Origin: Alphaproteobacteria bacterium
GTDB taxonomy: Bacteria; Pseudomonadota; Alphaproteobacteria; JABAAW01; JAHZMA01
Reading direction: 5' to 3'
Assembly: GCA_965205905.1 (NCBI GenBank)
Contig: CBDBHZ010000012.1
Location: 316,445 to 380,444 of the forward strand
Length of the DNA stretch: 64,000 nt
Positions within the stretch are counted from its first letter, which is position 1; the number at the start of each line of letters is the position of its first letter. Made by a program: the position numbers and the translations under genes. Positions 3,229-59,656 of the stretch are shown piece by piece. A model generated the notes under the pieces. That model made no database searches. It was not told the origin of the DNA and saw only the letters and a list, made by a program, of their open reading frames with translations.

Positions 3229-4551
3229 TTATCGCATCATGTTGATGATATTCATGGCATCAGCATTGGCATTCAAAGGCGGTTTTTTATGCAATTTCTT
3301 ATGCGATTCTTGTTTTAATGATAATGTTTTTATATCCGATTCTTGCCACATTTCTACCGACATATTATTATTTGGCATATGACTGTTGAAAACATTTTCA
3401 TCCTCAGCTTCTGCCCTGAAATCGGGCGGTGCTGCCAATAGCGGATTGCGTGGCGGTAATCCAACAGGTGCTTTTGCAGGATATAATTTTGCGCGCAAAT
3501 CGTTGATGGATATGCTTTCGCCATCACGTTCAACATGCCAATAAGTCCAGCCATTGCAACTGGGCAGGCCTTGCAAAGTTGCGCCAATCTTATGAATCGA
3601 GCCACGATGCGCCCCCGATTCGATACTGGCATCAGCATAAATTTTGGCAACAAAGCGTCTATCATTGCTAAATAAATCCTCACCCGCTTGTAGCAAGCCA
3701 CTTTCTAATAGATTACCAAAAGGAATGCGAATTTGATTGTTACGCGCAACACCTTTCATATAATGCTTCATTTTCGGTTCTAACTGCTTAATATCAGCGA
3801 GCCGTTGCGTGGCGACATCAATATAATCTTTTCGTTGCTCAACACCGATATAATTACGCCCTAATTTTTTGGCAACCGCAAGCGATGTGCCAGTGCCAGC
3901 AAAGGGGTCAAACACAATATGTCCGGGTTCGGTGCAGGCATTGATGATGCGGTAAAGCAAGGATTCAGGCTTTTGCGTGGGATGCGCTTTTTTGCCCGCC
4001 TCATCTTTCATACGCTCGCCACCCGTGCAAATCGGCAGATACCAATCCGAACGCATTTGCGTATCATCATTCATGCTTTTCAGCGATTGATAATTAAAGT
4101 GATATTTTGCCTTTGGCGATTTTACCGCCCATAGCAAAATTTCGTGAGCGTTGGTAAAACGTGTGCCACGAAAATTAGGCATCGGGTTAGATTTCACCCA
4201 AATCACATCATTGATAAGCCAGAAACCGTTATCCTGCAAAATTTTACCGATGCGGTAAATATTATGATAACTGCCAATCACCCATAATGACGCATCATCT
4301 TTCATGATACGTTTTGCGCCTGATAGCCATTGTTCGGTGAATGAATCATAATGGGCAAAATCGTCAAATTCGTCCCATTTTTCATTGACGCCATCAACCA
4401 TTGATTGGTCGGGGCGCGTTAAGTCGCTGTTGAGTTGTAAGAAGTAGGGGGGGTCTGCAAATACTAAATCTACAGATTCCGATGGCATATCCTGCATCAC
4501 TGATACAGAATCGCCCGCCACTACCCGATTTAGGGGTAAGTCGTTGAACAT
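3229..4551 (-). CDS. ccrM: cell-cycle-regulated DNA adenine methyltransferase CcrM (GANTC family) with ~75-aa low-complexity C-terminal extension
   Basis: Near-colinear match to CcrM: SVDLVFADPPYFLQL, GSYHNIYRIGKILQDNGFWLINDVIWVKSNPMPNFRGTRFTNAHE, HPTQKPESLLYRII, GSIHKIGA...CNGWTYWH. Conserved ccrM-rnhB synteny. Confidence 0.85.
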   Translation of the reverse strand: MFNDLPLNRVVAGDSVSVMQDMPSESVDLVFADPPYFLQLNSDLTRPDQSMVDGVNEKWDEFDDFAHYDSFTEQWLSGAKRIMKDDASLWVIGSYHNIYRIGKILQDNGFWLINDVIWVKSNPMPNFRGTRFTNAHEILLWAVKSPKAKYHFNYQSLKSMNDDTQMRSDWYLPICTGGERMKDEAGKKAHPTQKPESLLYRIINACTEPGHIVFDPFAGTGTSLAVAKKLGRNYIGVEQRKDYIDVATQRLADIKQLEPKMKHYMKGVARNNQIRIPFGNLLESGLLQAGEDLFSNDRRFVAKIYADASIESGAHRGSIHKIGATLQGLPSCNGWTYWHVERDGESISINDLRAKLYPAKAPVGLPPRNPLLAAPPDFRAEAEDENVFNSHMPNNNMSVEMWQESDIKTLSLKQESHKKLHKKPPLNANADAMNIINMMR

Positions 4552-8566: not shown

Positions 8567-9808
8567 TCAACTATAATTAATCACTTCTCTCGCTTCTTTA
8601 ATTTTCTTCACCTTTGCAAGCAAATATTCCATTGGGCGATTGCCTTTTACGCGGTTACAATTGCCACATAAAAGCTGATAATTTTCGTAATAATCACCGC
8701 CTCCTTTTGACTTGGGAATCACATGGTCAATCTCAAGATTGCGCTGTTCAAATTCATTAAAGCAACCGTTACATTTTCCTGTTTGCGCTTTATGTAAACG
8801 TGTTTTAATTGGCTCTGCTGGTGCGATTCTCTCAACATCTGTTCGTTGCGGCGGAATGGTTGTATTGATAAAATCTGAAAACATGCCTGCATCACCTGAT
8901 AGACGTTCCACCAATATATCAGCGGCTTTTTCTTCAATATCACAGCCAATCCATTTGCGATTTAATTGTTGTGATGCCACGCAAGCAGTGGCACAGCCAC
9001 AAAACGGGTCGAATACCACATCGCCTTTGTTACTTGATGCTTTAATGATGCGATGCAGTAACGCAAGCGGTTTTTGTGTTGGGTATCCTGTGCGTTCTTT
9101 TGGTGAAATATGCCCACCAGCTGGTATATCAGTCCAGTAATCCGCGGGCAATCTACCCCTTGCGATATATTCTGCCTGAACATCCTTGTCTTGCAATTTG
9201 CCACCGCCATCACCCCATATAGCGGGTTTTTTGCCCTTATCTGAATTTAGTCTTTTATACGGAATTCTAACATCATCATCATTGAAAACCCAATCATCAC
9301 TTTTGCTATATCGTAATATAGTGTCATGCTTTTTTGGAAAATTATTGCGCGACCCACTAGGACCACTATAACACCATATAATTTCATTACGAAAATTATT
9401 CTTGCCAAAAATGCCATCCATAATGATTTTTAGATAATGGCTTGCGGTTGGGTCAATATGCACATAGATACTGCCTGTTACTTTTAATATTCTGTTCATC
9501 TCAAGCAATCTCTGTGTCATATAGGCAATATACGAAGCCATCGCTGTTGAATGCAGGCGATAGATGCTATCAATAAAATCAGCAATATCAGGGTGGGTTT
9601 CATAAAGCCTCTCAAGGTAAGCGATATTAACATCGTCCCAACGCCACATATCCTTAAATGATGCCCCTGCTGATTTACTACCTACTGGCGCAGAATAAGT
9701 GCGCTTGCTATTAAAAGGTGGGTCAAGATAGATGAGGTCAACTGATTCGCTATCCATGCCATTAAGCAGAAATAGATTATCCAATGTATAAAGGGTGTTA
9801 CTACTCAT
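8567..9808 (-). CDS. beta-class DNA amino-methyltransferase fused to C-terminal HNH endonuclease domain
   Basis: MTase part: SVDLIYLDPPFNSK (motif IV), NEIIW, GYPTQKPLALLHRII, DPFCGCATA (motif I). Tail: CNGCFN...IDHVIPKSKGG...N...CGNCNRVKGN, a canonical HNH. The start overlaps the fliN stop. Confidence 0.8.
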   Translation of the reverse strand: MSSNTLYTLDNLFLLNGMDSESVDLIYLDPPFNSKRTYSAPVGSKSAGASFKDMWRWDDVNIAYLERLYETHPDIADFIDSIYRLHSTAMASYIAYMTQRLLEMNRILKVTGSIYVHIDPTASHYLKIIMDGIFGKNNFRNEIIWCYSGPSGSRNNFPKKHDTILRYSKSDDWVFNDDDVRIPYKRLNSDKGKKPAIWGDGGGKLQDKDVQAEYIARGRLPADYWTDIPAGGHISPKERTGYPTQKPLALLHRIIKASSNKGDVVFDPFCGCATACVASQQLNRKWIGCDIEEKAADILVERLSGDAGMFSDFINTTIPPQRTDVERIAPAEPIKTRLHKAQTGKCNGCFNEFEQRNLEIDHVIPKSKGGGDYYENYQLLCGNCNRVKGNRPMEYLLAKVKKIKEAREVINYS

Positions 9809-10481
9809 TACTGGCATAAAACAGCGTATGATGCTCATCAATATCGGCAATCATATTCACCACGCGTATTTGAAAATACTCACCATCAGATTCCAAATGC
9901 CCTTGCCCGATAAGGTGATGCCCGATTTTCAATTCCAGACTGCTTTCAATATCTTTATCAATCTCAATAATCGCACCGCGCCCGATTTTCATTAATTGCT
10001 CAATGCGTAACTCGGTATTGCCGATTTCGGCAACAATTTGCAATGGCACACTCGCCATAGCGGTGGTCTCAATATCAAATCCCGGCACAGTTACAACGGT
10101 TGGCTCTACTTTTTGCACCGAAGCATGTTCACCTTCAGGGTCGATATTATATTTATGGTCTGTATGAGGAATATCTTGTTGCGTATTGCCATGATAAATA
10201 TCTTCTTCTTTTAAGATATCAGCAGTTTTTTCAGGGGATACCGCCTGTGCGGTTTGGTTGAGTAATGTGTCTATATCAAAATTATCGCCTAAAGTTTCAC
10301 CTTGCACACCATCGCGCGGTATATGCACAGCGCCTATAGTTTCTGGATTGGTGTTTGCTGGCATTATATTTTCTGGCATTATATTTTCTGGATTGGCATC
10401 ATTCAGAATCTGCGTTAAATCATCGGGCAACTGCCCATTATTAGCATTATTAAACTCATCAGCCATATTATCATCCTTCAT
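9801..10481 (-). CDS. fliN: flagellar motor switch FliN-like protein (SpoA domain) with acidic repetitive N-terminus
   Basis: C-terminus VPLQIVAEIGNTELRIEQLMKIGRGAIIEIDK...LIGQGHLESDGEYFQIRV is a FliN/SpoA domain. The N-terminus is low-complexity, D/E/N/P-rich. Confidence 0.6.
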   Translation of the reverse strand: MKDDNMADEFNNANNGQLPDDLTQILNDANPENIMPENIMPANTNPETIGAVHIPRDGVQGETLGDNFDIDTLLNQTAQAVSPEKTADILKEEDIYHGNTQQDIPHTDHKYNIDPEGEHASVQKVEPTVVTVPGFDIETTAMASVPLQIVAEIGNTELRIEQLMKIGRGAIIEIDKDIESSLELKIGHHLIGQGHLESDGEYFQIRVVNMIADIDEHHTLFYASNE

Positions 10482-12656: not shown

Positions 12657-13922
12657 ATGCAGGAAAATATAACAAACAGAACGATTTTCTGCCGTGATAA
12701 TCTTGATATTATGCGGGGGATGGATACAGAATCTATCGACCTCATCTATCTTGACCCACCTTTTAACACAAAAAAAACATTTACTGCCCCGATTGGCAGC
12801 AGTGCAGAGGGGGCTTCGTTTTCTGATATTTTCCGTGAAGAAGATGTGAAAGATGAGTGGTTGCTAGATATTAAAGAAGATTTTTTTTCTATCCATGAAT
12901 TTCTAAATTCTGTCAAAAATATAGAAGGGCGCACATCTTATAATTTTTGTTATCTTGCTTATATGGCGATTCGATTGATAGAATGCCATCGTATCTTAAA
13001 AGATACGGGTAGCCTATATTTACATTGCGACCCAACCATGAGCCATTATTTAAAAATTCTGCTAGATTGTATTTTTGGTGAGAAGAAATTTAGGAATGAA
13101 ATTATATGGAGTTACCAACGGTGGACGGGCGCAACAAAGAATTTTCAAAAAATGCACGATATTATTTTATTTTATGCCAAAAACAACAATAACTTTACCA
13201 TGATTAGCGAGCCCTATAGCGATAAATCAAAACATAAGGGGCGGCGATTTACAACCACGCAAAAGGGCGCCATCACAGGTCAAGAATATATCAATGCGAA
13301 CCGCGAAAAAGCAATGCGTGACGTTTGGGAAATATCAATATTGAATAGCCAAGCCAAAGAGCGCACGGGCTATCCCACTCAAAAACCTCTTGCTTTGCTA
13401 GAACGCATTATCAAAGCCTCTTGCCCCGAAAATGGTATCGTGCTTGACCCCTTTTGCGGTTGCGCCACCACATGTATTGCGGCTGAACGATTGGGCAAAA
13501 AATGGATAGGCATTGATATATCAGTAAAAGCTTACGAATTGGTGCGTGAGAGGCTGGCAAAAGAAGTGGAGTGGGAAGATAGCCTGTTCCATGAAGAGTT
13601 GGTGAATTTTCAAACAAATCCGCCTAACCGCACTGATATTGGGCAAGATACGCAAGTAAAAAAATATGTCTATATTATATCGCATCAGCAATATCAGGGC
13701 GAATATAAAGTCGGGATTGCGTCTGATGTAAAATCAAGGCTGAATAGCTATCAAACGGGCGATCCTAACCGTGCCTATCACTTAGAATATTCATTTCATA
13801 CGCCATATTTTCGGGCGATAGAAAACTATATTCATGAAAAATATGATAATAAACATGAATGGGTGAGTGGTGAATTAAAGGATATTATTAAAGATATTGA
13901 AAATTATCAATCAAACGGGTAA
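12657..13922 (+). CDS. beta-class DNA amino-methyltransferase fused to C-terminal T5orf172/GIY-YIG-like domain (paralogue of 8567-9808)
   Basis: SIDLIYLDPPFNTK, NEIIW, GYPTQKPLALLERII, DPFCGCATT, colinear with the HNH-fused paralogue. Tail YVYIISHQ...YKVGIASDVKSRLNSYQTGDP...EKY...HEWV fits the T5orf172 (PF10544-like) pattern. Confidence 0.75.
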   Translation: MQENITNRTIFCRDNLDIMRGMDTESIDLIYLDPPFNTKKTFTAPIGSSAEGASFSDIFREEDVKDEWLLDIKEDFFSIHEFLNSVKNIEGRTSYNFCYLAYMAIRLIECHRILKDTGSLYLHCDPTMSHYLKILLDCIFGEKKFRNEIIWSYQRWTGATKNFQKMHDIILFYAKNNNNFTMISEPYSDKSKHKGRRFTTTQKGAITGQEYINANREKAMRDVWEISILNSQAKERTGYPTQKPLALLERIIKASCPENGIVLDPFCGCATTCIAAERLGKKWIGIDISVKAYELVRERLAKEVEWEDSLFHEELVNFQTNPPNRTDIGQDTQVKKYVYIISHQQYQGEYKVGIASDVKSRLNSYQTGDPNRAYHLEYSFHTPYFRAIENYIHEKYDNKHEWVSGELKDIIKDIENYQSNG

Positions 13923-16421: not shown

Positions 16422-18215
16422 ATGCATGATTATCGGACGCATCATTGTTACGAATTGACTCTGAAACAAGCGGGGAACTCTGTTAAATTATCGGGTTGGG
16501 TAGATAGAAAACGCGACCATGGCGGTTTATTATTTATTGATTTGCGCGATATGTATGGTATCACGCAATGTGTGGTGGAAGAAAATTCACCCTTATTTGC
16601 TGAGCTCACCAATGTACCACTAGAATCAGTACTTTGTGTTGATGGTGAGGTGCAACCGCGCACTGCCGAAACCATCAATAAAGATTTAGGCACAGGCGAG
16701 ATTGAAGTCCGCGTGAGGCAAGTTGAAATGTTATCGGAAGCGGCGGCATTGCCGATGCCCGTTAATCAGGAAAGCAGTGATTATCCTGAAGATATAAGGT
16801 TGCGCTATCGTTATCTGGATTTACGAAAGCGTGATATGATGAATAATATTATATTGCGTAACCGTGTGGTGAAACTATTGCGGGAAAAAATGCACGCCCG
16901 TGGTTTTCAAGAGTTTCACACGCCGATTCTAACGGCAAGCTCGCCCGAAGGTGCGCGTGATTTTTTGGTGCCTAGCCGTTTGCATCCGGGTAAATTTTAC
17001 GCATTGCCACAAGCACCGCAACAATTTAAGCAATTATTGATGGTGGCAGGGTTTGATAAATATTTCCAAATCGCGCCATGTTTTCGCGATGAAGATGCGC
17101 GCCGAGACCGCTCGCCCGGTGAGTTTTATCAGCTGGATTTTGAAATGGCATTCGCCACCCAACAAGATGTGTTTGATGTGATTGAACCCGTGCTTCACGA
17201 ATTATTTACCGAATGTTCCGATAAAACAGTTAGTCCCTATCCGTTTCAGCAAATCACCTATCATGATGCGATGAATAAATATGGCTCGGATAAGCCCGAT
17301 TTGCGTAATCCGTTATTGATACAAGAAGTTACCGAAATTTTTGAAGGCTCTGATTTTAAGATTTTTGCAAAATTGATTGCTGAAAAAGACTTTATCGTTC
17401 GTGGTATTATCGTGCCAGATGCGGCAGCACAGCCACGTTCATTCTTTGACAAGCTCAATGATTGGGCGCGGTCGGCAGGGCAGGCAGGGCTTGGCTATAT
17501 CAGCTTTAAAATGGAAGGTAGCGAGGGCGGTGAAGGCCCTATTGCGAAAAATCTTGACGATGCACGGATTGCTCAATTAAAACAACTCACCAATATTAAG
17601 CAGGGCGATGCGGTGTTTTTTGCATGTGGTAAGCCGCATGAATCAGCGCAATTTGCAGGGCAGGCGCGGACTAAAATTGCCGAAACGCTGGATTTGATTA
17701 AGAATGATTCATTCCAATTTTGTTGGATTACTGATTTTCCATTTTATGAGCTTGATGAAAAAACAGGCAAAGTGATTTTCTCGCATAATCCTTTTTCTAT
17801 GCCACAAGGCGGGTTAGATGCGCTTAATAATAGTGACCCACTCGCGATTAAAGCATGGCAATATGATATTGTGTGTAATGGGATTGAGCTTTCATCAGGG
17901 GCGATTCGAAATCATCGCACTGATATAATGCTGAGAGCGTTTGAAATTGCGGGCTATTCTAAAGAGCAAGTGGAACAAGAATTTGGCGGTATGCTAACCG
18001 CATTTTCGTATGGTGCGCCACCACATGGCGGGGCGGCACCAGGTCTTGAGCGCATTGTGATGTTATTGGCTGATACGCCGAATATTCGCGAGATTGTGCC
18101 ATTCCCAATGACGCAAACCGCGCAAGATTTAATGACGGGCGCACCGCTTGCGATTGATGAGAAGCTGTTAGAAGAGGTGCATATTCGCGTGAAAATGCCG
18201 ATTTTACCTGAATAA
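16422..18215 (+). CDS. aspS: aspartate--tRNA ligase
   Basis: 597 aa; class II AspRS motifs ([19 protein letters not shown]). Confidence 0.9.
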
Positions 18216-18239: not shown

Positions 18240-21200
18240 TTAAACGTCGTTAAAATAACGGGCACGGTAATCGCTTAAAAAGCTTTCGGTTGTTGCTTCT
18301 TGTGATAAAAGCCGTATCACCTCGCTGGCTTCAGCGGTTGAAAAATTATCACTGGAGGTGGCTTTGATATAGTCAAAGGCACGCTTTAATGGTGAGTTCC
18401 GCATACTCGGCTCAAAACGTTGTGCGACTTGCCGAAGCGTATCATATTGCTGTGATAATTGCAGTGACAACAGCCAGTTAATCAGATAATTGGCTTTTTG
18501 GTTGCCTAAAAACACATCTTCAGCTGGTGGCTCACCAGTAAGCCGCTGCATGGTAATGGCAGCACGATACCAATCTTGATTGTTCCAAAAAATATCGCGA
18601 CGCAGTAAATCGGCATTCAGTGATAAATCACCAGCGATTAAATCAAGTGCCGATTCTGGCTGTTCTAAATCAATCAATGCTTTGGCGTATAATCTTCTGG
18701 CATCAACGCTTTCTTGTGATGATTCAATGCCCAAATCGCTCCGATAGGTTTCAAACACATTAATCGTGCCTTCAGGGTTGCCCATCGTAATATGCAATAG
18801 TCCAACTTTTACGATAAGCGACCGCTTTTGCTTTGCCGTTAGCAACCTTTCAGCTATCAGTGGTTCTAACAATTCATTGGCGTTTTGATAAAATTGTTCC
18901 TCTATCAGATTATCGGCGATATTAGAAATAATCCGCACGCGTTCATTGCCAATGGGAAGCAATTCACGGAAATTGCGTAATAATTTGAGAGATGTTTGGG
19001 CATCAATATTAATATTTTCGTTTTCTTCTAAAAAGATTGAACGGAACACAGAAATCATTTCTTGGGTGAGTAATAAAGCAGAGGGGTTTTCAGGAAAGTA
19101 AGCAGCGGCATCACGTAAAATATTAAGCCCTAGCTCTACCTCACCAATGTCTAAATATAATTCACCTAAGCGCCCTAATAATTGTAATTCCAAATTATCA
19201 CCACGCCAAATATAGCGTAGATGCTCTAATTTTTGCGCCGATTCTTCAGGTAAGTTATCTCCCCTATTAAGGTCATAATTGATTTTTTCTAATTCAGCGA
19301 GAACCACCCATTTATTATTGGGGTCTAACTCAATCATTTCTTGCCAAACACCATAGGCATAATTGCTATCATTTTTGCGTAAGGCGAATAAGCCATCATA
19401 ATATAAAAAACGCTGATATTCATATTTAGCCATTTGGTTAATAAAATTACGCAATGTTTCTAACCATGTTTGCACCACAACCAAATCATTCGTGGCAAAA
19501 CCAGTTTCAATCTGCCAGTTGGCAATCCAATTTCTTAAATAGACAGGATAACGCCGTGCAAAATCGCTTGAACGTTCAAAGCGTAATTGGGCAGCTTCCC
19601 ACTCACCTTTTTGGGCGGCCGCAATACCTTGCCATAAGATTGCCTCGCCATAAGAAGAAAACACATCATCCGCTAGAATTTCAATGGCATCGTCGGTGCG
19701 CTCCATCAGCAGTAAAACCGCAGCTTTTAAGAGGCGGTAATTGATAGAATCGGTGGGATTATCAAAAACATCTTCATAAAGTTCTATATAGCCATATGCT
19801 TCACTGTTTAATTTTTGCCCTAAATAAAAAGTAGCCGCAGAAAGGTGATAAGCCCCACGTTCATTGCTAGGTAGGGTATAGTCTAAACTGTTATGAAGCT
19901 GTTGACGCGCTTCTAAAAATGGTAAAGCGCTATAAGAAATTGGTGGGAAATTAAGCAACGCATCATTCGAGGTATCATTTGCGCCGTCACCGTCATTTTC
20001 TAGTTTTTGCTGTGCAATATTTAAACCTGTTTCTTTATTAACGATGTAACCAGTTTCAGTATCAAAAATACTGATTCCTTCAATATGCGGCACAATCGCA
20101 ACACCTTGCTGTGCAGAAAGAAGCGAAAATTCTACAAAATCTCGCTGTTGTGTATTGGCAATGCCTAATGATTTAAATGTGCCAACCAGCAACTCACCAC
20201 CATAGATGGGGTCGGTAAATGTTACTGCTTTGCCAATATTGCTTGATGATAAAAGTAAATATTTATTGTTTTTGGCATCACGCTGTATATGCCCTGATAC
20301 TGTTTGCGTGGGGGTATAGGGTTCATCATGGAAACGCAAAATATAATTGAAGCCTTTTTGTGTAATAGATGCATTAATCTCGCGTGTTGGTAAAAACCTT
20401 AAAACAGTTGCCTCAGGCACCTCAACCCTTGCCACCTCCAGTAATAAGGGCAATAATCTGGTTCGCAATTTGCTTAAATTCACAGGCAAGTCACGGTCGG
20501 CGATAAACCAGTAATAGCCACCATATCTGAAAAATGCTGTGCCAATATTCTCAGTAAGTGGGATTGTAACGGTTTGTTGAGCATCAGGTAATGTTAGAAT
20601 TGAGCTTCCTAAATTGCGATTGATATTGGTTTTTGGGGGCGTGAAGGGGATTGTGCTAAAACGCTGAGAATCACCCCTAATCGTAGCTTTGGGAAAATCA
20701 TTGCGCTGCACCACTTCTTGTTGTTTTGGCAGTAAATCAATGACAATTTTTGTGCCTGAGCGAAAATGCCTGATATTGTAGCTATCGGGGACTTCCATTG
20801 CGAACACACTGGTGCTATCAATTTGCAAAATACGTGCATTACCAAATGGTTCGTTAGCATTAAACTCAACTTGGCTGATATCAATGGCTTCATTTTGCCC
20901 AAATGTAATTTGCATCTCTTCACTATCATACTCAATCAGATATTGCACTTCGGTTGTAAAATCAAAAATTATTCTTAAATATTCGGGCGTCCGTCCGATA
21001 CGCACAATATTTCTATTATCATTGCCGAATTGGTCATCATCGCTTAATGCTTCTAAATCAACACCTTGTGAAGAAAATACATTATTTGATTGCGTGTTGT
21101 TACTGGCTTCTTCCACAGAAGGTAAATCCTGATAACCCGCAATGATATTGTCACTATCGCCATTGAAACTGTTATCATCAATAATCGCTTCAGCAGCTGT

Positions 21201-22208
21201 ATCATTTTGTAAAAGCTGACTGGTTTGGTCTCTTGGCAGCATATCCACAATCACACGGCTGCCAATTCTTCTATGGGCAATCGCGAGCTGTTCGCTGGTT
21301 GGTAGAATAAAGACGCGCCCATTGCCAGTGATTCTGGCAGGGCCTGATGCTAATTCAAGCGAAGGTTCAATTTCTGAAAGTGTTTCCGATGTAAAAGGGC
21401 GGTCAAAAATAATACTGACATTGGTGGCACTGGCGGTTGCTTGATATTGCGGCTGGTCCGAGAAGATAAACTCTAATCTACCGCCACCATCATTTAATGA
21501 GTAGGTATTAATGGTGATAATTTCTATATCTGGCTCGCTTGCCTCTGCTTGTGGTGTTGCATTTGGTGTTGATTCGTCAGTGACGCTTAAATCCCCATCT
21601 AAATCCCCATCTAAATTTGGGGCATTTTGTGAATCCACTTCATCAGCATCTAGCGTAATAATTTGTGGCTGTGTAGAAGGGATTAAATCAGATTCCGATA
21701 TTTCTTGTTCATTAATCTCTGTTTGTGGCTGAGGCGTTATCAGGGCTTGCGATTCTTGCAAATATTGGTAAGTTTCCACCGCTTCGGTGAAATTACCCTG
21801 CCCAATATCAAACACAATGGAATTGTTAAAGCGAAACGGACGGAATGCCATACCATCTTGCAACTGAATCCTTATTTGAGTATCAGATAAACGGGTAATG
21901 TTATCCACATAATTTCTCATCACATCATTAATAGGTGGGATGGTAAAATTCGTCGAATCAGCAAATGTAATAACCACATTATTATTATCAGTGTTAGGTT
22001 CAATCGTATAGGCGGTGATTTCGGGCCAATCAAACGCGATACGCAAAAATTGCCCGTCATCATGTGGCGCAATACGTAGCGATTGTGCCTGTGCATGATG
22101 CACGGTGAACATAAATACAAACCCCACGACTGCCAGTAGGGCGGTGTTGATTAATAAACGGGTATGGTTACTTAATATCATATATGACAATTTCAATCCG
22201 GTTGACAA
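18240..22208 (-). CDS. large secreted protein with N-terminal repeated ~60-aa beta-domain repeats (AMIN-like pattern) and C-terminal TPR-like region
   Basis: Signal/TM segment; repeated LRIAFDW / LEFIFSD / LRIIFDF modules; D/E/N-rich linkers; TPR-like helical repeats in the C-terminal ~500 aa. Confidence 0.5.
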   Translation of the reverse strand: MSTGLKLSYMILSNHTRLLINTALLAVVGFVFMFTVHHAQAQSLRIAPHDDGQFLRIAFDWPEITAYTIEPNTDNNNVVITFADSTNFTIPPINDVMRNYVDNITRLSDTQIRIQLQDGMAFRPFRFNNSIVFDIGQGNFTEAVETYQYLQESQALITPQPQTEINEQEISESDLIPSTQPQIITLDADEVDSQNAPNLDGDLDGDLSVTDESTPNATPQAEASEPDIEIITINTYSLNDGGGRLEFIFSDQPQYQATASATNVSIIFDRPFTSETLSEIEPSLELASGPARITGNGRVFILPTSEQLAIAHRRIGSRVIVDMLPRDQTSQLLQNDTAAEAIIDDNSFNGDSDNIIAGYQDLPSVEEASNNTQSNNVFSSQGVDLEALSDDDQFGNDNRNIVRIGRTPEYLRIIFDFTTEVQYLIEYDSEEMQITFGQNEAIDISQVEFNANEPFGNARILQIDSTSVFAMEVPDSYNIRHFRSGTKIVIDLLPKQQEVVQRNDFPKATIRGDSQRFSTIPFTPPKTNINRNLGSSILTLPDAQQTVTIPLTENIGTAFFRYGGYYWFIADRDLPVNLSKLRTRLLPLLLEVARVEVPEATVLRFLPTREINASITQKGFNYILRFHDEPYTPTQTVSGHIQRDAKNNKYLLLSSSNIGKAVTFTDPIYGGELLVGTFKSLGIANTQQRDFVEFSLLSAQQGVAIVPHIEGISIFDTETGYIVNKETGLNIAQQKLENDGDGANDTSNDALLNFPPISYSALPFLEARQQLHNSLDYTLPSNERGAYHLSAATFYLGQKLNSEAYGYIELYEDVFDNPTDSINYRLLKAAVLLLMERTDDAIEILADDVFSSYGEAILWQGIAAAQKGEWEAAQLRFERSSDFARRYPVYLRNWIANWQIETGFATNDLVVVQTWLETLRNFINQMAKYEYQRFLYYDGLFALRKNDSNYAYGVWQEMIELDPNNKWVVLAELEKINYDLNRGDNLPEESAQKLEHLRYIWRGDNLELQLLGRLGELYLDIGEVELGLNILRDAAAYFPENPSALLLTQEMISVFRSIFLEENENINIDAQTSLKLLRNFRELLPIGNERVRIISNIADNLIEEQFYQNANELLEPLIAERLLTAKQKRSLIVKVGLLHITMGNPEGTINVFETYRSDLGIESSQESVDARRLYAKALIDLEQPESALDLIAGDLSLNADLLRRDIFWNNQDWYRAAITMQRLTGEPPAEDVFLGNQKANYLINWLLSLQLSQQYDTLRQVAQRFEPSMRNSPLKRAFDYIKATSSDNFSTAEASEVIRLLSQEATTESFLSDYRARYFNDV

Positions 22209-22863
22209 GCTTCTCTCTTTCCTCCGGTGAAAATGTCAGGCTAACCTGATCTTCTATTGGCCATGTACGTGCACTGATAGCGACACTACGCGTAATGCCA
22301 TTATCAAAAAAATACTGCCTTACTGTATTAGCATAAGCCAGCCCTAAAATCCACCTCGAACTTATATTTTCTAATAAAGTGCTATTTGGGCTGACATTTG
22401 CGATAATTTCCATGCGATTTTTATAGATATTCAGCAAATCCATCAAATCGAGCAATAATATTTTACCTGCTGGTGTCAAACGGTCACCCTCTTGATGGAA
22501 CAGTAAATCATTATAAATGCTGATATTTATCCAACCCTTGCCAAGCGTTATATTAATATTCTCAAAGCCCGGTATTGTTTTGGTGTGTTGAAAAAGTATC
22601 TTATAAATATAGCGCGTCGGCTGTTCGATAGGGTCTTTCTTAAAATTAATAGCAAGGGAATAGTCGTATTGATTGGCAACTTTACGCAATTCATCAATAT
22701 CCGCTATTGTTTTCGAAGAAATAAAATCCTGATTCACAAGGTTACTAACAGAAAATAGAAGCACAAAAAAAGTAAGTAATAATGCCAGCATATCGCCCAT
22801 GCTGGTTAGCCAACCCGCAGCTTTTCGTGGTTCACGTTTAAGAACGCGCGGTTTAAATGACAT
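22168..22863 (-). CDS. MotB-like protein (N-terminal TM with conserved Asp; degenerate OmpA-like C-terminus)
   Basis: WLTSMGDMLALLLTFFVLLF aligns to the MotB plug/TM (W..D....AFF). The C-terminus NISSRWILGLAYANTVRQYF is OmpA-like. Confidence 0.5.
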   Translation of the reverse strand: MSFKPRVLKREPRKAAGWLTSMGDMLALLLTFFVLLFSVSNLVNQDFISSKTIADIDELRKVANQYDYSLAINFKKDPIEQPTRYIYKILFQHTKTIPGFENINITLGKGWINISIYNDLLFHQEGDRLTPAGKILLLDLMDLLNIYKNRMEIIANVSPNSTLLENISSRWILGLAYANTVRQYFFDNGITRSVAISARTWPIEDQVSLTFSPEEREKLVNRIEIVIYDIK

Positions 22864-23574
22864 TTATTGCTGTCCCGATATTGTTGTATTATTCGTTGTT
22901 GCATCACCCGATATAATCTGAATATTGGGCAGTTCTTCTATATTTGTATAAAAACGAAATTCTACAAACTCATCTTCCTCGGTGCTGATACTACCTTGCA
23001 GGTAATAAGATGGCACCCCCTCATATATCAGCAAATCAATCAAATGTTCTAGCCGTTCTGCCGCTTGTGGCGGACCATAAGAAAAACTATTGCCAAGTTC
23101 TAATACAGGTGTATTAATAGTAACCACAACATAAATAGGTGTGGAAGCTTGTGAAATTGAATGCGCTATCCGACGAATAACGATTAATTGTTCCGCGCGA
23201 ATGGTAGAAGAATCTGAATGAAAAATATCATTAAGAGAGAATCTAACAAAAATGCGATTGGCGTTATTTTCAATGATTGTGGGGTCAATCACCTTTATTT
23301 CATTTTCAATCAAAGTGCGGATAACTTGCAAAATATGATTGTTAGAAATGCCACTGGCACGATTTTGCGGGGTGTTAACCGTTTCTTCAGTCGCATCAAC
23401 AGTAATAGAAAAAACTTCAGCAATCGATTCGATGGCTTGGTCGCTACGTTCATCAACAACTTCGGAAAGTGCAACCAATACCACAAAGAAAGCCAGTAAT
23501 AGAATAAAGAGATTGACGAAAATGGTCGCACCCGCATTCGGGTCAGATTCATAACTAGTTTTGCTCATATACAA
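22864..23574 (-). CDS. MotB-like paralogue (Asn replaces the conserved TM Asp; degenerate OmpA-like C-terminus)
   Basis: GATIFVNLFILLLAFFVVL is a MotB-like TM segment. Confidence 0.4.
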   Translation of the reverse strand: MYMSKTSYESDPNAGATIFVNLFILLLAFFVVLVALSEVVDERSDQAIESIAEVFSITVDATEETVNTPQNRASGISNNHILQVIRTLIENEIKVIDPTIIENNANRIFVRFSLNDIFHSDSSTIRAEQLIVIRRIAHSISQASTPIYVVVTINTPVLELGNSFSYGPPQAAERLEHLIDLLIYEGVPSYYLQGSISTEEDEFVEFRFYTNIEELPNIQIISGDATTNNTTISGQQ

Positions 23575-23591
23575 CCATCACCAATAAGAGA

Positions 23592-24236
23592 TTACTGAAA
23601 CATTTCATCAATCATCTGCTGTTTATCAGGTGATTGATGCAAATCTGGACCTTCAAGCATCTCCCCTGGATCTTTGATAATCTCTTGCTTGCTGACACGT
23701 TCTTTATAGCGATTTCTAGCATCTTCATCGCCAAGCAATGATAAGATACCGTCAAGAGTCATTTCAATCTGCTCTAATGTTCTAATCACTTTACCCATTC
23801 TTTGACCCGTAATATCTTGAAAGCTAGACGCTTCCAAAATACGCGTGGTGTATTTTTGTATCGCATCGCGAGTTTCTTCAGGAATATTTTCGGTGATAAC
23901 ATCCATATGCTCGGCACATTCTAAAATTGCCGAGGTGGCAGTTTCAGTGGAAGAGCGAATAGCAACCAACTCATTGATAATGTTCGGAATATATTTATCA
24001 CGAATATCTTCAGGGTGTAATCCTTTAATTTTTTCAGTGAAAGTGGAGCGAACATTATTTAATATTTTCTTTTCTAAATCACCCACAGTCATGCGGTTGC
24101 TGAGTTGTCCAATTTTTAAGTTTGTGCCACCCTCATGTCCCGGAATGTGCGAATAAAGAATCGAATCAACAAAATCCTCCACCTCTTTGCGTGAAGCAAA
24201 AACTTGATTACTTACTTTCTTGGTGTTTTCTACCAT
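23592..24236 (-). CDS. cheZ: CheY-P phosphatase CheZ
   Basis: 214 aa. SFQDITGQRMGKVIRTLEQIE aligns with E. coli CheZ [20 protein letters not shown] (catalytic Asp/Gln conserved). C-terminal acidic CheY-binding peptide. Confidence 0.7.
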   Translation of the reverse strand: MVENTKKVSNQVFASRKEVEDFVDSILYSHIPGHEGGTNLKIGQLSNRMTVGDLEKKILNNVRSTFTEKIKGLHPEDIRDKYIPNIINELVAIRSSTETATSAILECAEHMDVITENIPEETRDAIQKYTTRILEASSFQDITGQRMGKVIRTLEQIEMTLDGILSLLGDEDARNRYKERVSKQEIIKDPGEMLEGPDLHQSPDKQQMIDEMFQ

Positions 24237-24524
24237 TTTACCTAAATCCCAAAATTATATTTATTATTATCATACATTGTAGCCACTTACTTCTAAACGA
24301 GTAATGATAAAAAATTATTCTTGTATAATTATTATAGCATAAAATCTTAAAAATTCATAGAAAATTCTGATAATGAAATGAAATTATTGATATTCAACTC
24401 ATCGCTCACTGCATAACACAATGATAACACATAAATTTTTGATAATTAGCTCTATTAAATCAAGTTTGGTAAATCAGTTTTGGCAATTTAAAATTTGCAA
24501 ATCTGTTTTTCTGCTGATAGCAAT

Positions 24525-24905
24525 CTAAGTCAATACGCTTTCAACTTTAGAGCGCAATGTCTCAGCATTAAATGGCTTAACAATATAATTATTAACGCCT
24601 GCATTTTTTGCTGCCAAAACATTTTCAGTTTTGCTTTCTGCCGTTACCATGATAAAAGGTATATCTTTATGCTCTGGTGTGTTTCTGACACTTTTTAAGA
24701 AATCAAAACCATTCATCGGCTGCATATTCCAATCAGAAATAATCAAACTATATTTCTTGGTCGCAAGCTTTTTAAGTGCATCAGTGCCATCATAGGCTTC
24801 GTCAACATCTTCAAAGCCAATTTGCTTTAATAGATTTCGAATGATTCGCAACATCGTTTTGTAATCATCAACAATAAGGACAGATATCTTAGTATCAAAA
24901 GGCAT
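24525..24905 (-). CDS. cheY: chemotaxis response regulator CheY (single REC domain)
   Basis: VLIVDDYKTM, ISDWNMQPMNG, FIMVTAE..NVLAAKNAGVNNYIVKP. GGAG RBS before the internal ATG. Confidence 0.8.
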   Translation of the reverse strand: MPFDTKISVLIVDDYKTMLRIIRNLLKQIGFEDVDEAYDGTDALKKLATKKYSLIISDWNMQPMNGFDFLKSVRNTPEHKDIPFIMVTAESKTENVLAAKNAGVNNYIVKPFNAETLRSKVESVLT

Positions 24906-25035
24906 TGCATAAAGCTCCACTTTAACTGCTCTTTAAACGATAAAGAAAACAGTTTGTTAAACATAAAAACAACTGCATTATACAACCCAATTGCCTCGCT
25001 GTCAATCACACAATCACATAAAAATAATAATTTTT

Positions 25036-26085
25036 CTAATTCTTTAAATTTGTGGTGATATTTTGTGCAATTTTTGTGAAAATCGCCTGTATTGTCGCAT
25101 GTGTCTTGGTATTGTTATCCACATCTGCCATAAAAGGAATTTGTTTATCCGCCGAACCACGCAAATCTTGCATCAGCGGTATCTTGCCTAACAATTCAGT
25201 GCCATGTTGCTTTGCCTGTTGTTGCATATCTAGCGCATCAAAAATATGACTTACCTCGCCACAATGCGGGCATGTGAAGCCTGCCATATTCTCAACCATG
25301 CCAATCAGCGGGATATTCAGCTTTTCAAACATTTTCATTGCGCGTGATGCATCAATCAACGATAAATCATGCCCTGTGGTGATAATCACCGCGCCATCAG
25401 CCTTTGTTTGCTGGGCAATAGAAAGCGGAATATCACCCGTGCCGGGCGGCAAATCTATCACCAGATAATCAAGCATTTCACCTTCATTGTCAGCCCAATT
25501 CACATCAAACAAAAATTGCTTCAACGCTTTGACTACCATAGGTGCACGCCATATAATTGCATCTTGTGGAGTGGTTAAATAGCCCATAGAAATGCTTTTG
25601 ATACCAAATTTTTCAATCGGCATCGCACGGTTATTTTCAATGAGAGGCTTTTCAGTTATCCCCAATAATTGTGCCATCGATGGTCCGTAAATATCGGCAT
25701 CAAGCAAACCGATTCGATAATTGCCGATTTGTGAAAGCGCGACTGCCAAATTTAAGCTGATGGTTGATTTACCAACCCCGCCCTTACCACTGCCCACCAG
25801 AATAATCTTTTTGGCAGGTGATGGGTTGCTAGATTCTTGCATTTTATCGCGTTCGGCAGTCAGGGCGATATTCACAAGCCTTGTCTCCCCAGCTTCCATC
25901 AGCGCAGAAACATATTCTTGTTGTAATTTATTTGCCTCACCAGCAATCAATGCTTGGGGGAGGGTTATCACGATTTGCAATTTTTTCTGGTCAGGCATCA
26001 GCGAAATAGCGGCCGCGCTTAATGTTTCACCATTGCTCATTGCTATATTGCATAAGATATCGATAATTTTTTGATTGTTAAGCAT
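25036..26085 (-). CDS. apbC: Mrp/ApbC/NBP35 Fe-S cluster carrier ATPase
   Basis: Walker A VGSGKGGVGKSTISLNLA and conserved CPHCGE motif. Confidence 0.8.
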   Translation of the reverse strand: MLNNQKIIDILCNIAMSNGETLSAAAISLMPDQKKLQIVITLPQALIAGEANKLQQEYVSALMEAGETRLVNIALTAERDKMQESSNPSPAKKIILVGSGKGGVGKSTISLNLAVALSQIGNYRIGLLDADIYGPSMAQLLGITEKPLIENNRAMPIEKFGIKSISMGYLTTPQDAIIWRAPMVVKALKQFLFDVNWADNEGEMLDYLVIDLPPGTGDIPLSIAQQTKADGAVIITTGHDLSLIDASRAMKMFEKLNIPLIGMVENMAGFTCPHCGEVSHIFDALDMQQQAKQHGTELLGKIPLMQDLRGSADKQIPFMADVDNNTKTHATIQAIFTKIAQNITTNLKN

Positions 26086-26234
26086 AATATTAGTTCCAAA
26101 TATTGTTTGTCGTAAGCCATTATAATAGCATATCAGCATGATAATCGATAAAGCATAAAAAATATACCTTGCAATAAGATAATAGGGTAACTATATATAG
26201 GGTGAATTACTTAATAAATGAAAAAGAGGTAGGC

Positions 26235-54563: not shown

Positions 54564-54689
54564 GCTACGATTATAGCTTACTTATTGGTAAACCACAATT
54601 ATTGTGTCACAATTACTGTGGTCAAAATGTTACAGTGCTTGTTTGTTTTACCAAAAAAAATTATAAAGATAGCTTATGAAAGGGCGATA

Positions 54690-59095: not shown

Positions 59096-59656
59096 ATGGT
59101 TAGTGCCATACAAGCCCATTCAACTGAAAATAATTTATTTGCCGATTTAGATGGCGAAATTGAACAGCTGGTAACATTGGTTGTTGATAATCAAATTTTC
59201 GGTATTCCTATCTTGCAAGTTCAAGATATTGTTGAGCCTAAAAATATTACCTCCGTGCCGCGCGCGCCTTCCTTTGTCTGCGGTGTGTTAAATTTACGCG
59301 GACGGATAGTAACTGTGATTGATTTGCAAGTTTGCATGGGCAAGCGTGACAAATATGAATATCATGAAGGGCAAATGAGTGTAACCGTTGAATATGAGGG
59401 TGATTTATACACATTGCTGATAGATGATATTGGCGATGTTCTCAATATTCATAACAGTCAAGTCGGCAAAGTGCCAAAAAACCTTGATGATGCGTTGCGT
59501 GATGTTTCGAGTGGTATTGTGCAATTAGATGAGGAATTATTATCTATTTTATCTGTGCCAATGCTATTCAAACGGCTTGAATATCTCAGTAGAAATAGCA
59601 ATGAAAGAGAAGGCGAGATTGCAACTGCTGGTGGCAGACGCGAAGATGAAGAATAG
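59096..59656 (+). CDS. cheW: chemotaxis coupling protein CheW
   Basis: FGIPILQVQDIVEP...GVLNLRGRIVTVIDL is a CheW domain. Confidence 0.8.
   Translation: MVSAIQAHSTENNLFADLDGEIEQLVTLVVDNQIFGIPILQVQDIVEPKNITSVPRAPSFVCGVLNLRGRIVTVIDLQVCMGKRDKYEYHEGQMSVTVEYEGDLYTLLIDDIGDVLNIHNSQVGKVPKNLDDALRDVSSGIVQLDEELLSILSVPMLFKRLEYLSRNSNEREGEIATAGGRREDEE

Follow-up and report, generated by a model that had tools for sequence, protein, structure and literature searches.

PflA forms the spokes of the proximal disk in Campylobacter jejuni and Helicobacter pylori; it consists of an N-terminal, AMIN-like beta-sandwich, a flexible linker and a superhelix of 16-17 TPRs, serves as a scaffold for MotB and the stator ring, and touches the FlgY E-ring (PMC12222027, PMC12054838). 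Homologues of the PflA/FlgY spoke and E-ring have been described (10.1101/2025.02.19.638559, PMC13023049). For Caulobacter crescentus, Hershey et al. (2021) reported that deletion of fssB (CC_2058) left the flagellum assembled but paralysed, like deletion of motB (PMC7885107), and CC_2058 was termed a PflA homologue (10.1101/2025.02.19.638559). Velez-Gonzalez et al. (2024) described MotK of Cereibacter sphaeroides Fla2 together with MotE and MotB2, both of which it binds; MotK is needed for rotation but not for assembly, its deletion paralyses the assembled flagellum, and according to the authors it has no sequence similarity outside Rhodobacterales (PMC10954123). In Sinorhizobium meliloti, the periplasmic TPR protein MotC is stabilised by MotE and needed for motor function; it differs from the large protein described below in having no AMIN-like domain (PMC13023049).

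The window analysed here is a stretch of 64 kb of alphaproteobacterial DNA. Three minus-strand ORFs, encoding two MotB-like proteins and one large protein, lie tightly coupled downstream of cheY and cheZ:

24977..25005, minus strand: putative promoter-like site upstream of cheY, TTGACA-17 nt-TATAAT (consensus scan, 12/12 matches)
24525..24920, minus strand: cheY, single-domain response regulator, first gene of the local cluster (Pfam Response_reg, E=2.5e-29; NCBIfam CheY, E=4.7e-42)
24331..24344, minus strand: extended -10-like element TTTTATGCTATAAT in the 288-nt cheY-cheZ spacer, conserved in relative L003
23592..24236, minus strand: cheZ, CheY-P phosphatase (Pfam CheZ, 32.9 bits; cut-off 30.7)
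22864..23568, minus strand: motB' (MotB-like-1), 234 aa (start by exact-sequence look-up; Pfam MotB_plug, 23.8 bits; cut-off 24)
22168..22863, minus strand: motB (MotB-like-2), 231 aa, stator B subunit (Pfam MotB_plug, 36.6 bits; cut-off 24)
18240..22181, minus strand: motK/fssB/pflA-like gene, predicted secreted scaffold protein of 1313 aa (start by exact-sequence look-up; synteny; AF2/Foldseek)

Exact-sequence look-up placed the start of MotB-like-1 at an ATG two codons inside a TTG ORF and that of the large protein at an ATG at 22181, giving 1313 aa versus the 1322 aa of the ORF. As read from the sequence, 23 nt separate the cheZ stop from the MotB-like-1 ATG, 0 nt lie between the TAA of MotB-like-1 and the ATG of MotB-like-2, and the large gene, from its ATG on, shares 14 nt with MotB-like-2. 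The three coupled genes described in a first-pass annotation of this DNA were thus confirmed, and so was its large secreted protein, but not the length of 1322 aa. The stretch TTTTATGCTATAAT is also present in relative L003 (62% identity between the large proteins), and the remaining cheY-cheZ spacer has diverged. It occurs once in the window versus 0.01 expected, and is a candidate internal promoter for cheZ-motB'-motB-motK. At the equivalent position, cheZ was found in 31 related loci, and cheY lies ahead of cheZ in most related loci that have cheZ.

At E<=1e-30, the large-protein family numbered 3114 cluster representatives. Of 59 related loci, 45 had the large gene (X) at the end of the order fliL-fliM-pflI(DUF6468)-motE-[cheY-cheZ]-[motB'-motB]-X; motE was present in 45 of the 59, and rod-gene (Flg_bb_rod-type) ORFs came after the large gene in many. 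Distant homologues likewise lie in flagellar operons, adjoining motE/flgY and fliL-fliM in Pfam-annotated examples. Their fliL-fliM-pflI-motE-X layout is shared with Caulobacter, where the motE homologue CC_2059 presumably lies in a fliL-fliM-pflI cluster; the link is positional and architectural. Chance does not account for the arrangement: 31 independent loci have the three genes in the order motB'-motB-large gene, and in the 29 loci measured the gap at either junction had a median of -4 nt. The trio is the end part of a flagellar operon that is widespread among Rhodospirillales-type alphaproteobacteria and not an isolated oddity. Its order matches the published fliL2-pflI-motE-motA2-motK of C. 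sphaeroides (PMC10954123) and CC_2059(motE)-CC_2058 of Caulobacter (10.1101/2025.02.19.638559), and the position of the large gene is the slot of MotK and CC_2058/FssB. The earlier remark that this was not a described alphaproteobacterial module is outdated, as FssB/CC_2058, MotK with MotE, and PflA/FlgY homologues appear in papers of 2021 to 2026.

Synteny also bears on the idea that the trio is a non-flagellar envelope machine (Tol-Pal-like, type IV pilus secretin accessory, type VI secretion or Zorya defence). In its favour, motB' weakly matched the DotU/TssL NCBIfam model (25 bits; cut-off 520), weak PADLOC ZorB matches were obtained (22-30 bits), and pilus systems include AMIN domains and TPR proteins. 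However, the DotU/TssL and ZorB matches fall far short of the cut-offs and reflect general MotB/OmpA homology, and no ZorA, ZorC, ZorD, Tss or Pil genes were found near the trio. Furthermore, in ~45 related loci the genes lie between fliM/motE and, in many, rod-gene ORFs, and the best fold match of the large protein is a flagellar scaffold protein. A non-flagellar machine is effectively refuted by synteny, and we give it practically no weight.

The large protein, encoded on the minus strand, was divided as follows:

22086..22181, minus strand: Sec signal peptide, aa 1-32 (read from sequence; predicted cleavage after AQA)
21801..22085, minus strand: AMIN-like unit 1, aa 33-127 (iterated HMM, E=4e-17; outside the structure model)
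21588..21616, minus strand: 12-bp tandem repeat in the acidic stretch linking units 1 and 2 (Tandem Repeats Finder: period 12, 2.4 copies, 100% match)
21234..21527, minus strand: AMIN-like unit 2, aa 219-316 (AF2 all-beta sandwich, pLDDT ~80-90; HMM, E=6.6e-17)
20727..21008, minus strand: AMIN-like unit 3, aa 392-485 (AF2 beta-sandwich; Pfam AMIN-like PF24837, E=0.005, below threshold)
20037..20576, minus strand: central beta-rich region, aa 536-715 (AF2 strands, pLDDT ~80-90; fourth, cryptic AMIN-like unit in the first half)
18246..19928, minus strand: C-terminal TPR-like alpha-solenoid, aa 752-1312, ~30 helices (AF2; weak Pfam TPR_16, TPR_19 and ANAPC3)

The signal peptide noted in the first-pass annotation is visible in the sequence, running from MILSNHTR through a hydrophobic core to AQA followed by QS. 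The tandem DNA repeat that it listed was also recovered and encodes LDGDLDGDL, and its TPR-like C-terminus agrees with the weak Pfam TPR matches and the predicted helices. Of its three AMIN-like repeats of ~60 aa, the repetition held (unit 2 versus unit 3, BLASTP E=2e-8) but not the length, which is ~95 aa each; moreover, iterated HMM searches gave four units, the cryptic fourth with E=1.5e-11 at aa 538-618 (547-627 in the numbering of the 1322-aa ORF). Pfam AMIN/AMIN-like matches stayed below threshold, both for repeat 3 and for the N-terminus of a homologue (E=0.004). Unit 1 is missing from homologues of 1000-1100 aa in the alignment and is a clade-specific extra unit. In the family as a whole, no beta region is better conserved than the central beta-rich one. 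Within the solenoid lies the WRGD motif of the family, of which W-R-G is invariant in the family alignment.

An AF2 model of the large protein without unit 1 (pLDDT 76) showed beta-sandwiches, linkers and a ~30-helix solenoid. Its top Foldseek match among 350,542 PDB chains was a periplasmic flagellar scaffold chain of C. jejuni, 9hmf_K (773 residues), with 755 aligned columns, E=1.9e-8 and low TM-scores of 0.15-0.19. We infer from the length that this chain is PflA, as 773 residues equal PflA 16-788 as modelled in PMC12222027. The profile of the large-protein family gave no sequence-level match to PDB chains except generic TPRs. In both PflA and the large protein, a long TPR solenoid comes after a beta-sandwich; the large protein differs in its multiple beta-sandwich units and a length greater by ~500 aa, and a profile search detected no sequence similarity between the two. 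PflA also has a membrane-anchored TPR partner, PflB, and acts together with a cage, whereas no PflB-like gene was seen here. MotK (Q3IY86) and CC_2058 (Q9A6M9) were likened to the large protein by position and architecture, not by sequence. MotK, too, is secreted and periplasmic, has an AMIN-like domain at its N-terminus and is rich in TPRs over the rest of its length, and its gene is the last of a fliL-pflI-motE-(stator gene)-X operon, adjoining the stator gene. However, MotK has ~650 aa, judged from a 2163-bp PCR product including 100-bp flanks, and one AMIN-like domain, whereas the protein studied here has three plus the cryptic fourth, as well as acidic linkers; the adjoining stator gene is motA2 there and motB'-motB here. 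The gene for FssB, a TPR protein secreted through Sec, directly follows the motE homologue CC_2059 (10.1101/2025.02.19.638559, PMC13023049), but Caulobacter has neither cheY-cheZ nor motB'-motB between motE and the scaffold gene. The stator-associated scaffold analogous to PflA/PflB that the first-pass annotation proposed is supported by the flagellar-operon homologues, the PflA architecture and the best PDB match.

MotB-like-2 keeps the proton-binding Asp (Asp24, in GDMLALLLTFF), which was invariant in 30/30 family sequences, and its transmembrane helix and plug are intact. The family profile matched PDB MotB 6ysf over its full length (E=9.3e-33), and MotB and PomB in the PDB were matched with E=1e-28 to 1e-32. 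Judged by sequence, MotB-like-2 is a genuine MotB, sharing the full architecture and the essential transmembrane Asp with canonical MotB/PomB (PDB 6ysf, 8zyv, 6ykm). The Asp and Arg of the OmpA-like domain contact peptidoglycan, as established from OmpA-domain structures. In the clade of the window both are lost from MotB-like-2, with NVS for HTD and YA for RA, and the OmpA Pfam score was 20.4 bits, below the cut-off. This loss is restricted to the small clade and is not family-wide; the orthologue in a cultured relative gave full MotB_plug and OmpA Pfam matches.

The clade-specific substitutions and the low OmpA score would also fit a module decaying in a streamlined lineage, its genes being relics of a motility system under loss. 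The detachment of the cluster from fliL-motE points the same way, as do the flagellar and chemotaxis genes scattered singly through the window. The 64-kb window contains no motE, fliL or fliM, and these partners are presumed in this genome. Against decay, all three ORFs are intact, synteny is kept in relatives with large proteins 53-88% identical, and MotB retains its Asp, helix and plug. In addition, the window has intact copies of cheY, cheZ, an MCP gene, cheW and a fliN-like gene, and the large gene gained a domain, with no sequence loss. Decay is thus very unlikely in our judgement.

MotB-like-1 has the MotB-type transmembrane helix, a plug-like helix, a disordered linker and an OmpA-like domain, but Asn replaces the proton-binding Asp (VNLFILLLAFF), as the first-pass annotation had read. 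The Asp position was S, G, A or N in 121/121 homologues and never Asp, although many positions were nearly invariant. The peptidoglycan-motif Arg, which that annotation took to be lost from both proteins together with the rest of RA, is kept here (ERL) and was lost from MotB-like-2 alone. Alignment with the MotB family by hhalign was collinear, with 98% probability. Structure prediction, which had been suggested for these proteins, gave for motB' an AF2 model of pLDDT 73 with Foldseek matches to OmpA-like, PomB and MotB C-terminal domains, next to the PflA-type match of the large protein. In its architecture and OmpA-like fold MotB-like-1 resembles canonical MotB/PomB. It lies directly upstream of motB in 31 loci, two cultured species included, and is always paired with motB. 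Of the supposed two MotB-like paralogues, one is thus MotB itself, and MotB-like-1 is, from these alignments, an aspartate-less MotB paralogue not equivalent to it. In S. meliloti, MotC acts on MotB, and motB and motC are presumably adjacent in one operon; we know of no second, aspartate-less motB there. Of the ORFs of at least 150 aa that were scanned in the window, none was a motA, in agreement with the earlier observation that none is adjacent; a motA, too, is presumed to lie elsewhere in this genome.

Related marine Rhodospirillales are reported to have several stator gene sets (PMC7175107), and motB here need not be the main stator motB. The pair motB'-motB could then be a second, specialised or regulatory stator set, with the aspartate-less protein as an inhibitor or brake, a B subunit that conducts no protons and competes for MotA or stator slots, and the large protein as a docking platform. 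Stellaceae, Inquilinaceae and other loci retain the large gene but lack the pair at this position; the pair is therefore dispensable at this locus, and the missing Asp in every motB' sequence would suit a brake. On the other hand, in 31 loci the pair lies inside a core basal-body operon and shows translational coupling to the scaffold gene, and an essential motA2 occupies the same slot in C. sphaeroides (PMC10954123). Such strict retention beside motB is unexpected for a pure inhibitor. We regard a second stator set as unlikely, though less so than decay.

The explanation that we consider probable is that 18240-24920 is the distal part of a Rhodospirillales-type flagellar operon whose scaffold, MotB and aspartate-less partner anchor the stator. 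The operon would read fliL-fliM-pflI-motE-cheY-cheZ-motB'-motB-motK, its distal part split from the fliL-motE half in this small genome. The large protein, likened to MotK, FssB (CC_2058) and PflA by synteny, architecture and one low-TM fold match, would be a Sec-exported periplasmic scaffold of their kind. From the literature on relatives, it would function as a periplasmic spoke and bind MotE and MotB. By analogy with MotK and PflA, its AMIN-like beta-sandwich end would contact the cell wall and/or periplasmic MotB, and these contacts would recruit, hold and open stator units. MotB-like-2 would be the proton-conducting MotB subunit of a MotA encoded elsewhere, and the motB' product its obligate aspartate-less partner. 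The transmembrane and plug segment of the motB' product is MotB-like and strongly conserved; we therefore think that this protein sits in a MotA pentamer, either as a heterodimer with MotB or as a non-conducting unit, and connects stator and scaffold. The first-pass reading is thereby partly supported, and the observation itself is confirmed. In this clade the peptidoglycan-contact residues of MotB were lost together with the gain of the extra AMIN-like unit by the scaffold, a co-variation that counts as a single evolutionary event, and the scaffold may have taken over wall anchoring from MotB. The aspartate-less MotB partner seems to be a new element, and the only undescribed part of the module.

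A run of five co-oriented genes on the minus strand, flanked by apbC/mrp and the convergent aspS, comprises cheY, cheZ, two MotB-like genes (MotB-like-1 and MotB-like-2, referred to below as motB' and motB) and one large gene.

25036-26139, apbC/mrp, flanking the cluster on the cheY side
24525-24920, minus strand, cheY
23592-24236, minus strand, cheZ
22864-23568, minus strand, MotB-like-1 (motB'), 234 aa, called start at the ATG at 23568
22168-22863, minus strand, MotB-like-2 (motB)
18240-22181, minus strand, large gene, 1313 aa, called start at the ATG at 22181
16422-18215, aspS, convergent with the cluster

The two called starts were taken from an exact-sequence look-up in the protein collection. 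The genes from cheZ through the large gene are tightly packed: 23 nt separate the cheZ stop codon from the motB' ATG, the TAA of motB' directly abuts the ATG of motB, and motB overlaps the large gene by 14 nt. The trio of large gene and two MotB-like genes reported in the first-pass annotation was confirmed. cheY and cheZ are separated by a spacer of 288 nt (24237-24524), whereas they nearly abut in other lineages. Within this spacer lies an extended -10-like box, TTTTATGCTATAAT (24331-24344, minus strand), a stretch that is kept in the close relative L003 while the surrounding spacer has diverged. It is a candidate internal promoter that may serve cheZ-motB'-motB-motK. Directly upstream of cheY, a sigma-70 consensus matching at 12/12 positions was seen (TTGACA, 17 nt, TATAAT; 24977-25005, minus strand). 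CtrA or sigma-54 dependence is usual for alphaproteobacterial flagellar genes. Rfam and tRNA scans of the window gave no matches, and no MotA was present among the scanned open reading frames of the 64-kb window.

In M. blakemorei the large protein carries the NCBI name "hypothetical". No Pfam model reached its curated cut-off on the protein of the window, and most homologues are without a recorded Pfam domain. By inspection, its N terminus reads MILSNHTR, then LLINTALLAVVGFVFMFTV, then HHAQA|QS, i.e. a positively charged start, a hydrophobic core and an AQA|QS site. This pattern points to a Sec signal peptide and a periplasmic location, and no further hydrophobic helix was noticed downstream of it. 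Three units of about 95 residues (aa 33-127, 219-316, and 392-485) are separated by linkers rich in D, E, N, Q, and S, one of which contains a 12-bp tandem repeat (21588-21616) encoding LDGDLDGDL. Units 2 and 3 are recognizably homologous (BLASTP, E = 2e-8), and a family-iterated HMM resolved four units, the fourth inside a conserved central beta-rich region. Pfam AMIN and AMIN-like models stayed below threshold (E = 0.005 for unit 3 and 0.004 for the N terminus of the Magnetovibrio homologue), and the C terminus gave only weak Pfam matches to TPR_16, TPR_19, and ANAPC3. An AlphaFold2 model built from a 10-sequence alignment covered aa 216-1313 with a mean pLDDT of 76. It contained all-beta sandwiches at aa 216-316 and 391-485 (pLDDT 63-92 per 10-residue block) and disordered linkers. 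Residues 536-715 were again rich in beta-strands, and residues 752-1312 formed an alpha-solenoid with some 30 helices, mostly at pLDDT 80-95. The protein is thus predicted to combine N-terminal beta-sandwiches of AMIN type, albeit sub-threshold in Pfam, with a long C-terminal TPR superhelix.

This architecture resembles that of known flagellar proteins. In Cereibacter sphaeroides, the Fla2 operon has the order fliL2-pflI-motE-motA2-motK, and MotK (Q3IY86) is a periplasmic protein with an AMIN-like N terminus and a TPR-like remainder that is located at the flagellated pole, binds MotE and MotB2, and is required for rotation but dispensable for assembly (PMC10954123). CC_2058 (Q9A6M9) was indicated as its distant counterpart (PMC10954123). 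It is identical with FssB, a Sec-secreted TPR protein whose deletion paralyzes the flagellum as does deletion of motB (PMC7885107). On the basis of predicted structures, MotC, MotK, and CC_2058 have been argued to be homologues of the spoke protein PflA, and MotE and CC_2059 to be homologues of FlgY, which forms the E-ring; FlgY homologues were reported in most flagellated bacteria other than beta- and gammaproteobacteria, and flagellar-linked PflA-like TPR proteins in about half of flagellated species (10.1101/2025.02.19.638559; PMC13023049). PflA itself consists of an N-terminal beta-sandwich, a linker, and a superhelix of 16-17 TPRs (PMC12222027).

When the model of the large protein was compared with 350,542 PDB chains by Foldseek, chain 9hmf_K (773 residues) ranked first, with 755 aligned columns and E = 1.9e-8, above all generic TPR proteins (IFT-A, Ctr9, Ski3, and OGT). 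Entry 9HMF is titled [quoted passage not shown]. The deposited scaffold model comprised PflB 113-820 and PflA 16-788, the latter a span of 773 residues (PMC12222027); chain K was therefore read as PflA from its length. With the chain assigned in this way, the model suggests an overall structural similarity to PflA; the TM-scores between the two were low (0.15-0.19), as expected of a flexible multi-domain protein and model. A profile of the large protein searched against PDB sequences retrieved generic TPR proteins only and no PflA. Sequence-level similarity is thus lacking, and assignment to the MotK/FssB/PflA kind rests on four lines: the place of the gene in the operon, the architecture of the protein, its one top-ranking fold match, and structural arguments from the literature. 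PflB was considered as well and rejected. It has a transmembrane anchor and a mid-chain pair of beta-strands closing the TPR array (10.1101/2025.02.19.638559), whereas the N-terminal hydrophobic segment of the large protein is followed by an AXA cleavage site and its modeled solenoid lacks a beta-pair. The proposal of a stator-associated periplasmic scaffold with PflA-like logic thus found support in operon position, architecture, and the match to 9hmf_K. The accompanying view that such a module was undescribed in alphaproteobacteria had to be given up, as this kind of protein was described between 2021 and 2026 (FssB, PMC7885107; MotK, PMC10954123; 10.1101/2025.02.19.638559; PMC13023049).

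Word-indexed searches returned only 10 matches for the large protein and 6 for MotB-like-2, suggesting clade-restricted genes. This was overturned by an exhaustive profile search and locus analysis, which showed both families to be widespread. A profile from 10 relatives, scored against 1.84 billion cluster representatives, retrieved 6415 proteins at E<=1e-3, 3114 of them at E<=1e-30; lengths of 1000-1250 aa were typical. A pattern scan from a 2-sequence alignment, with one genome per species, yielded 55 loci from Stellaceae, Thalassospiraceae, Inquilinaceae, Rhodospirillaceae, and Magnetovibrionaceae, including the cultured Magnetovibrio blakemorei MV-1, and the open reading frames of all loci were classified with HMMs made from Pfam-annotated neighbors. 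Gene order proved nearly constant: flgF/G on the opposite strand, then fliL, fliM, DUF6468, an MgtE_N-like gene (motE), optionally cheY and cheZ, optionally motB' and motB, and finally the large gene, followed in many loci by rod-gene (Flg_bb_rod-type) reading frames. Of 59 loci, 45 have motE upstream of the large gene and about 40 have fliL or fliM; the cultured Varunaivibrio sulfuroxidans (GCA_004341725.1) shows the whole order, its genes being annotated by Pfam. In the window the large gene is linked to motB only, not to motE or fliL. Since only the part from cheY to the large gene is present, the locus is regarded as the detached tail of a fliL-to-scaffold operon; the same part alone was seen in the close relatives L003 and L059 and in two other lineages (L035 and L048).

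This synteny also bears on the idea that the genes belong to a non-flagellar envelope or defense system, of which there were faint signs in matches to ZorB of Zorya (ZorAB; 22-30 bits) and to TssL/DotU of type VI secretion (DotU, 25 bits; cut-off 520). It was rejected because such matches are weak and generic and the synteny is overwhelmingly flagellar; no ZorA, ZorC, ZorD, or Tss genes were found in the window, and Tol-Pal was likewise ruled out by the flagellar synteny of the related loci.

In the related loci L001-L060, DUF6468 reading frames invariably lie between fliM and motE (e.g. L001, 8050-8574; L060, 7354-7977). The C. sphaeroides gene WS8N_12050 was identified as pflI (PMC10954123). 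By its position relative to that operon, the DUF6468 gene corresponds to PflI, a polar flagellar positioning protein of Caulobacter, a name that Pfam DUF6468 seemingly does not carry. Two loci from metagenome-assembled genomes labeled as non-proteobacterial, L044 ("uncultured Flavobacteriaceae") and L033 ("Candidatus Neomarinimicrobiota"), hold a complete alphaproteobacterial fliL-fliM-pflI-motE-motB'-motB cluster, L033 together with the scaffold gene; they are probably mis-binned contigs rather than cases of gene transfer.

Elsewhere in the window, four further genes with flagellar, chemotaxis, or regulatory assignments stand singly amid housekeeping genes.

9801-10481, minus strand, FliN-like (FliMN_C)
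39257-40816, minus strand, MCP
54585-56087, plus strand, sigma-54 activator
59096-59656, plus strand, CheW

The flagellar regulon of this lineage, with a genome of roughly 1.9 Mb, appears highly fragmented. Four N6_N4_Mtase DNA methyltransferase genes are also scattered among housekeeping genes (267-1193, plus; 3229-4551, minus; 8567-9850, minus; 12657-13922, plus), among them one with a RAMA domain, one fused to an HNH endonuclease, and one fused to T5orf172. The syntenic regions of L003 and L059 lack those at 8567-9850 and 12657-13922, fliN-dus and folK-Zn-ribbon being adjacent there, so that both appear to be orphan or mobile methylases inserted recently.

The first-pass annotation had described both small proteins as MotB-like paralogues. 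This stood for MotB-like-1, in which the proton-binding aspartate is absent; MotB-like-2 is simply MotB. Its transmembrane segment, W..S-M-G-D-M-L-A-L-L-L-T-F-F, carries the proton-binding Asp24 (GDMLALLLTFF), which is invariant in 30/30 orthologues. Pfam MotB_plug scored 36.6 bits (cut-off 24), in line with a predicted transmembrane helix bearing the aspartate and followed by a plug. For the C-terminal OmpA-like fold there was a signal of 20.4 bits, below the OmpA cut-off. A profile of 20 orthologues matched Clostridium MotB over its full length (E = 9.3e-33), which ruled out a merely MotB-like protein; PomB, MotS, and further MotB chains followed at E = 1e-13 to 1e-28. In the family at large, the OmpA-like signature is canonical (GHTDP ... 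SNWELSxARAxAVA); most members outside the window clade keep the RA arginine and about half also keep GHTD. Only in the window and two close relatives is the motif degenerate, with NVS replacing HTD and YA replacing RA, so that degeneration across the whole family was excluded. The aspartate and the arginine of OmpA-like domains contact peptidoglycan; thus, both contact residues are gone from MotB of the window clade. Its intact proton-conducting part and clear orthology nevertheless justify the assignment to MotB. A separate location of motA has a precedent in Caulobacter, where motA and motB occupy different loci (CCNA_00787 and CCNA_01644; PMC7885107).

The scaffold has four rather than three AMIN-like units at 5 of 52 loci, including three with NVS/YA MotB. 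This suggests that wall anchoring moved from MotB to the scaffold in the window clade; as loss of the peptidoglycan contacts and gain of the extra unit amount to one evolutionary event, their association is only suggestive. The same changes might be taken as motility decaying in a streamlined genome, which is unlikely because the reading frames remain intact and conserved and the scaffold has acquired a domain.

In MotB-like-1, the position of the proton-binding aspartate was occupied by S in 60, G in 43, A in 17, and N in 1 of 121 sequences and never by D (0/121); the window has Asn, and just one of the 121 sequences had any acidic residue in the membrane segment. The protein was therefore classified as a MotB paralogue and not as a functional MotB. 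It is collinear with the MotB family over 188 columns (hhalign probability 98.2%), and its profile matched PomB and MotB at about E = 1e-9. Its AlphaFold2 model (121-sequence alignment, pLDDT 73) started with a long N-terminal helix, continued through a disordered linker, and ended in an OmpA-like domain, which in Foldseek matched PA0833, YiaD, and the C-terminal domains of PomB and MotB (E = 1e-6 to 1e-7). MotB-like-1 accordingly has the layout of MotB: a transmembrane helix and a plug-like helix, joined through a linker to an OmpA-like domain. Its transmembrane and juxtamembrane segment hardly varies, nor do many positions in the periplasmic part, which argues for a function and against decay. 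motB' lies directly upstream of motB in 31 loci, and in two more that are truncated; the median gap, measured in 29 loci, is -4 nt at each of the two junctions. Genomes carrying the pair include V. sulfuroxidans, M. blakemorei MV-1, and a 1.93-Mb contig of ERZ26051151. In M. blakemorei, motB' and motB alike bear the NCBI name "flagellar motor protein MotB".

In the literature, no account of a MotB paralogue that lacks the aspartate and adjoins motB was found, which is not proof of absence. Multicellular magnetotactic Deltaproteobacteria are reported to possess conserved "(motA)-2motB-fliR..." clusters, i.e. tandem motB genes (PMC7175107). Alternatively, motB'-motB might constitute a second stator set, or one with a regulatory role; this is possible, as more than one set can occur in relatives (PMC7175107) and as the pair is missing from the scaffold-gene position in some families.

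In the mechanism we propose, the large protein would be exported to the periplasm and, by analogy with MotK and PflA, form radial spokes that span from the MotE/FlgY ring to the stator ring. The end with the AMIN-like units would face the wall and/or the periplasmic domain of MotB, and the protein would be needed for recruiting or opening stators. The motB product would act as the proton-conducting B subunit, with motA encoded elsewhere. The motB' product has a strongly conserved membrane helix of MotB type; we infer that it most likely resides in a MotA pentamer, either paired with MotB as a heterodimer or forming a non-conducting unit, and would couple the stator to the scaffold. A bolder version can be put forward only tentatively and is rather doubtful: motB' would be an undescribed obligatory stator component in a large group of Rhodospirillales-type alphaproteobacteria, either as a MotB-MotB' pair in the MotA pentamer, which would make the stator asymmetric and leave it one proton-binding Asp, or as a non-conducting "dummy" unit docking the MotK-like spoke, and wall anchoring in the window clade would have passed entirely from MotB to the multi-AMIN scaffold.

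New in these results are the conserved aspartate-less MotB partner, one large un-modeled sequence family for the scaffold in Rhodospirillales-type bacteria, and a clade-specific multi-AMIN scaffold paired with a MotB without wall-binding residues. Scaffolds of E-ring and spokes (FlgY/MotE with PflA/MotK) have recently been proposed to be ancient and widespread and are known, outside Campylobacterota and spirochaetes, mostly from a few genetic studies. The locus places the MotK/FssB-like protein in one very large family that spans thousands of clusters at 50% identity and whose genes keep a fixed position in the flagellar operon; a family model could easily be built, and annotation would gain from it. 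The question of motB' is open to testing in the cultured carriers M. blakemorei MV-1 and V. sulfuroxidans. If motB' enters the stator, it would bear directly on how work is divided between the two B chains of a 5:2 rotary motor; otherwise, it would represent a new kind of stator-to-scaffold adaptor.
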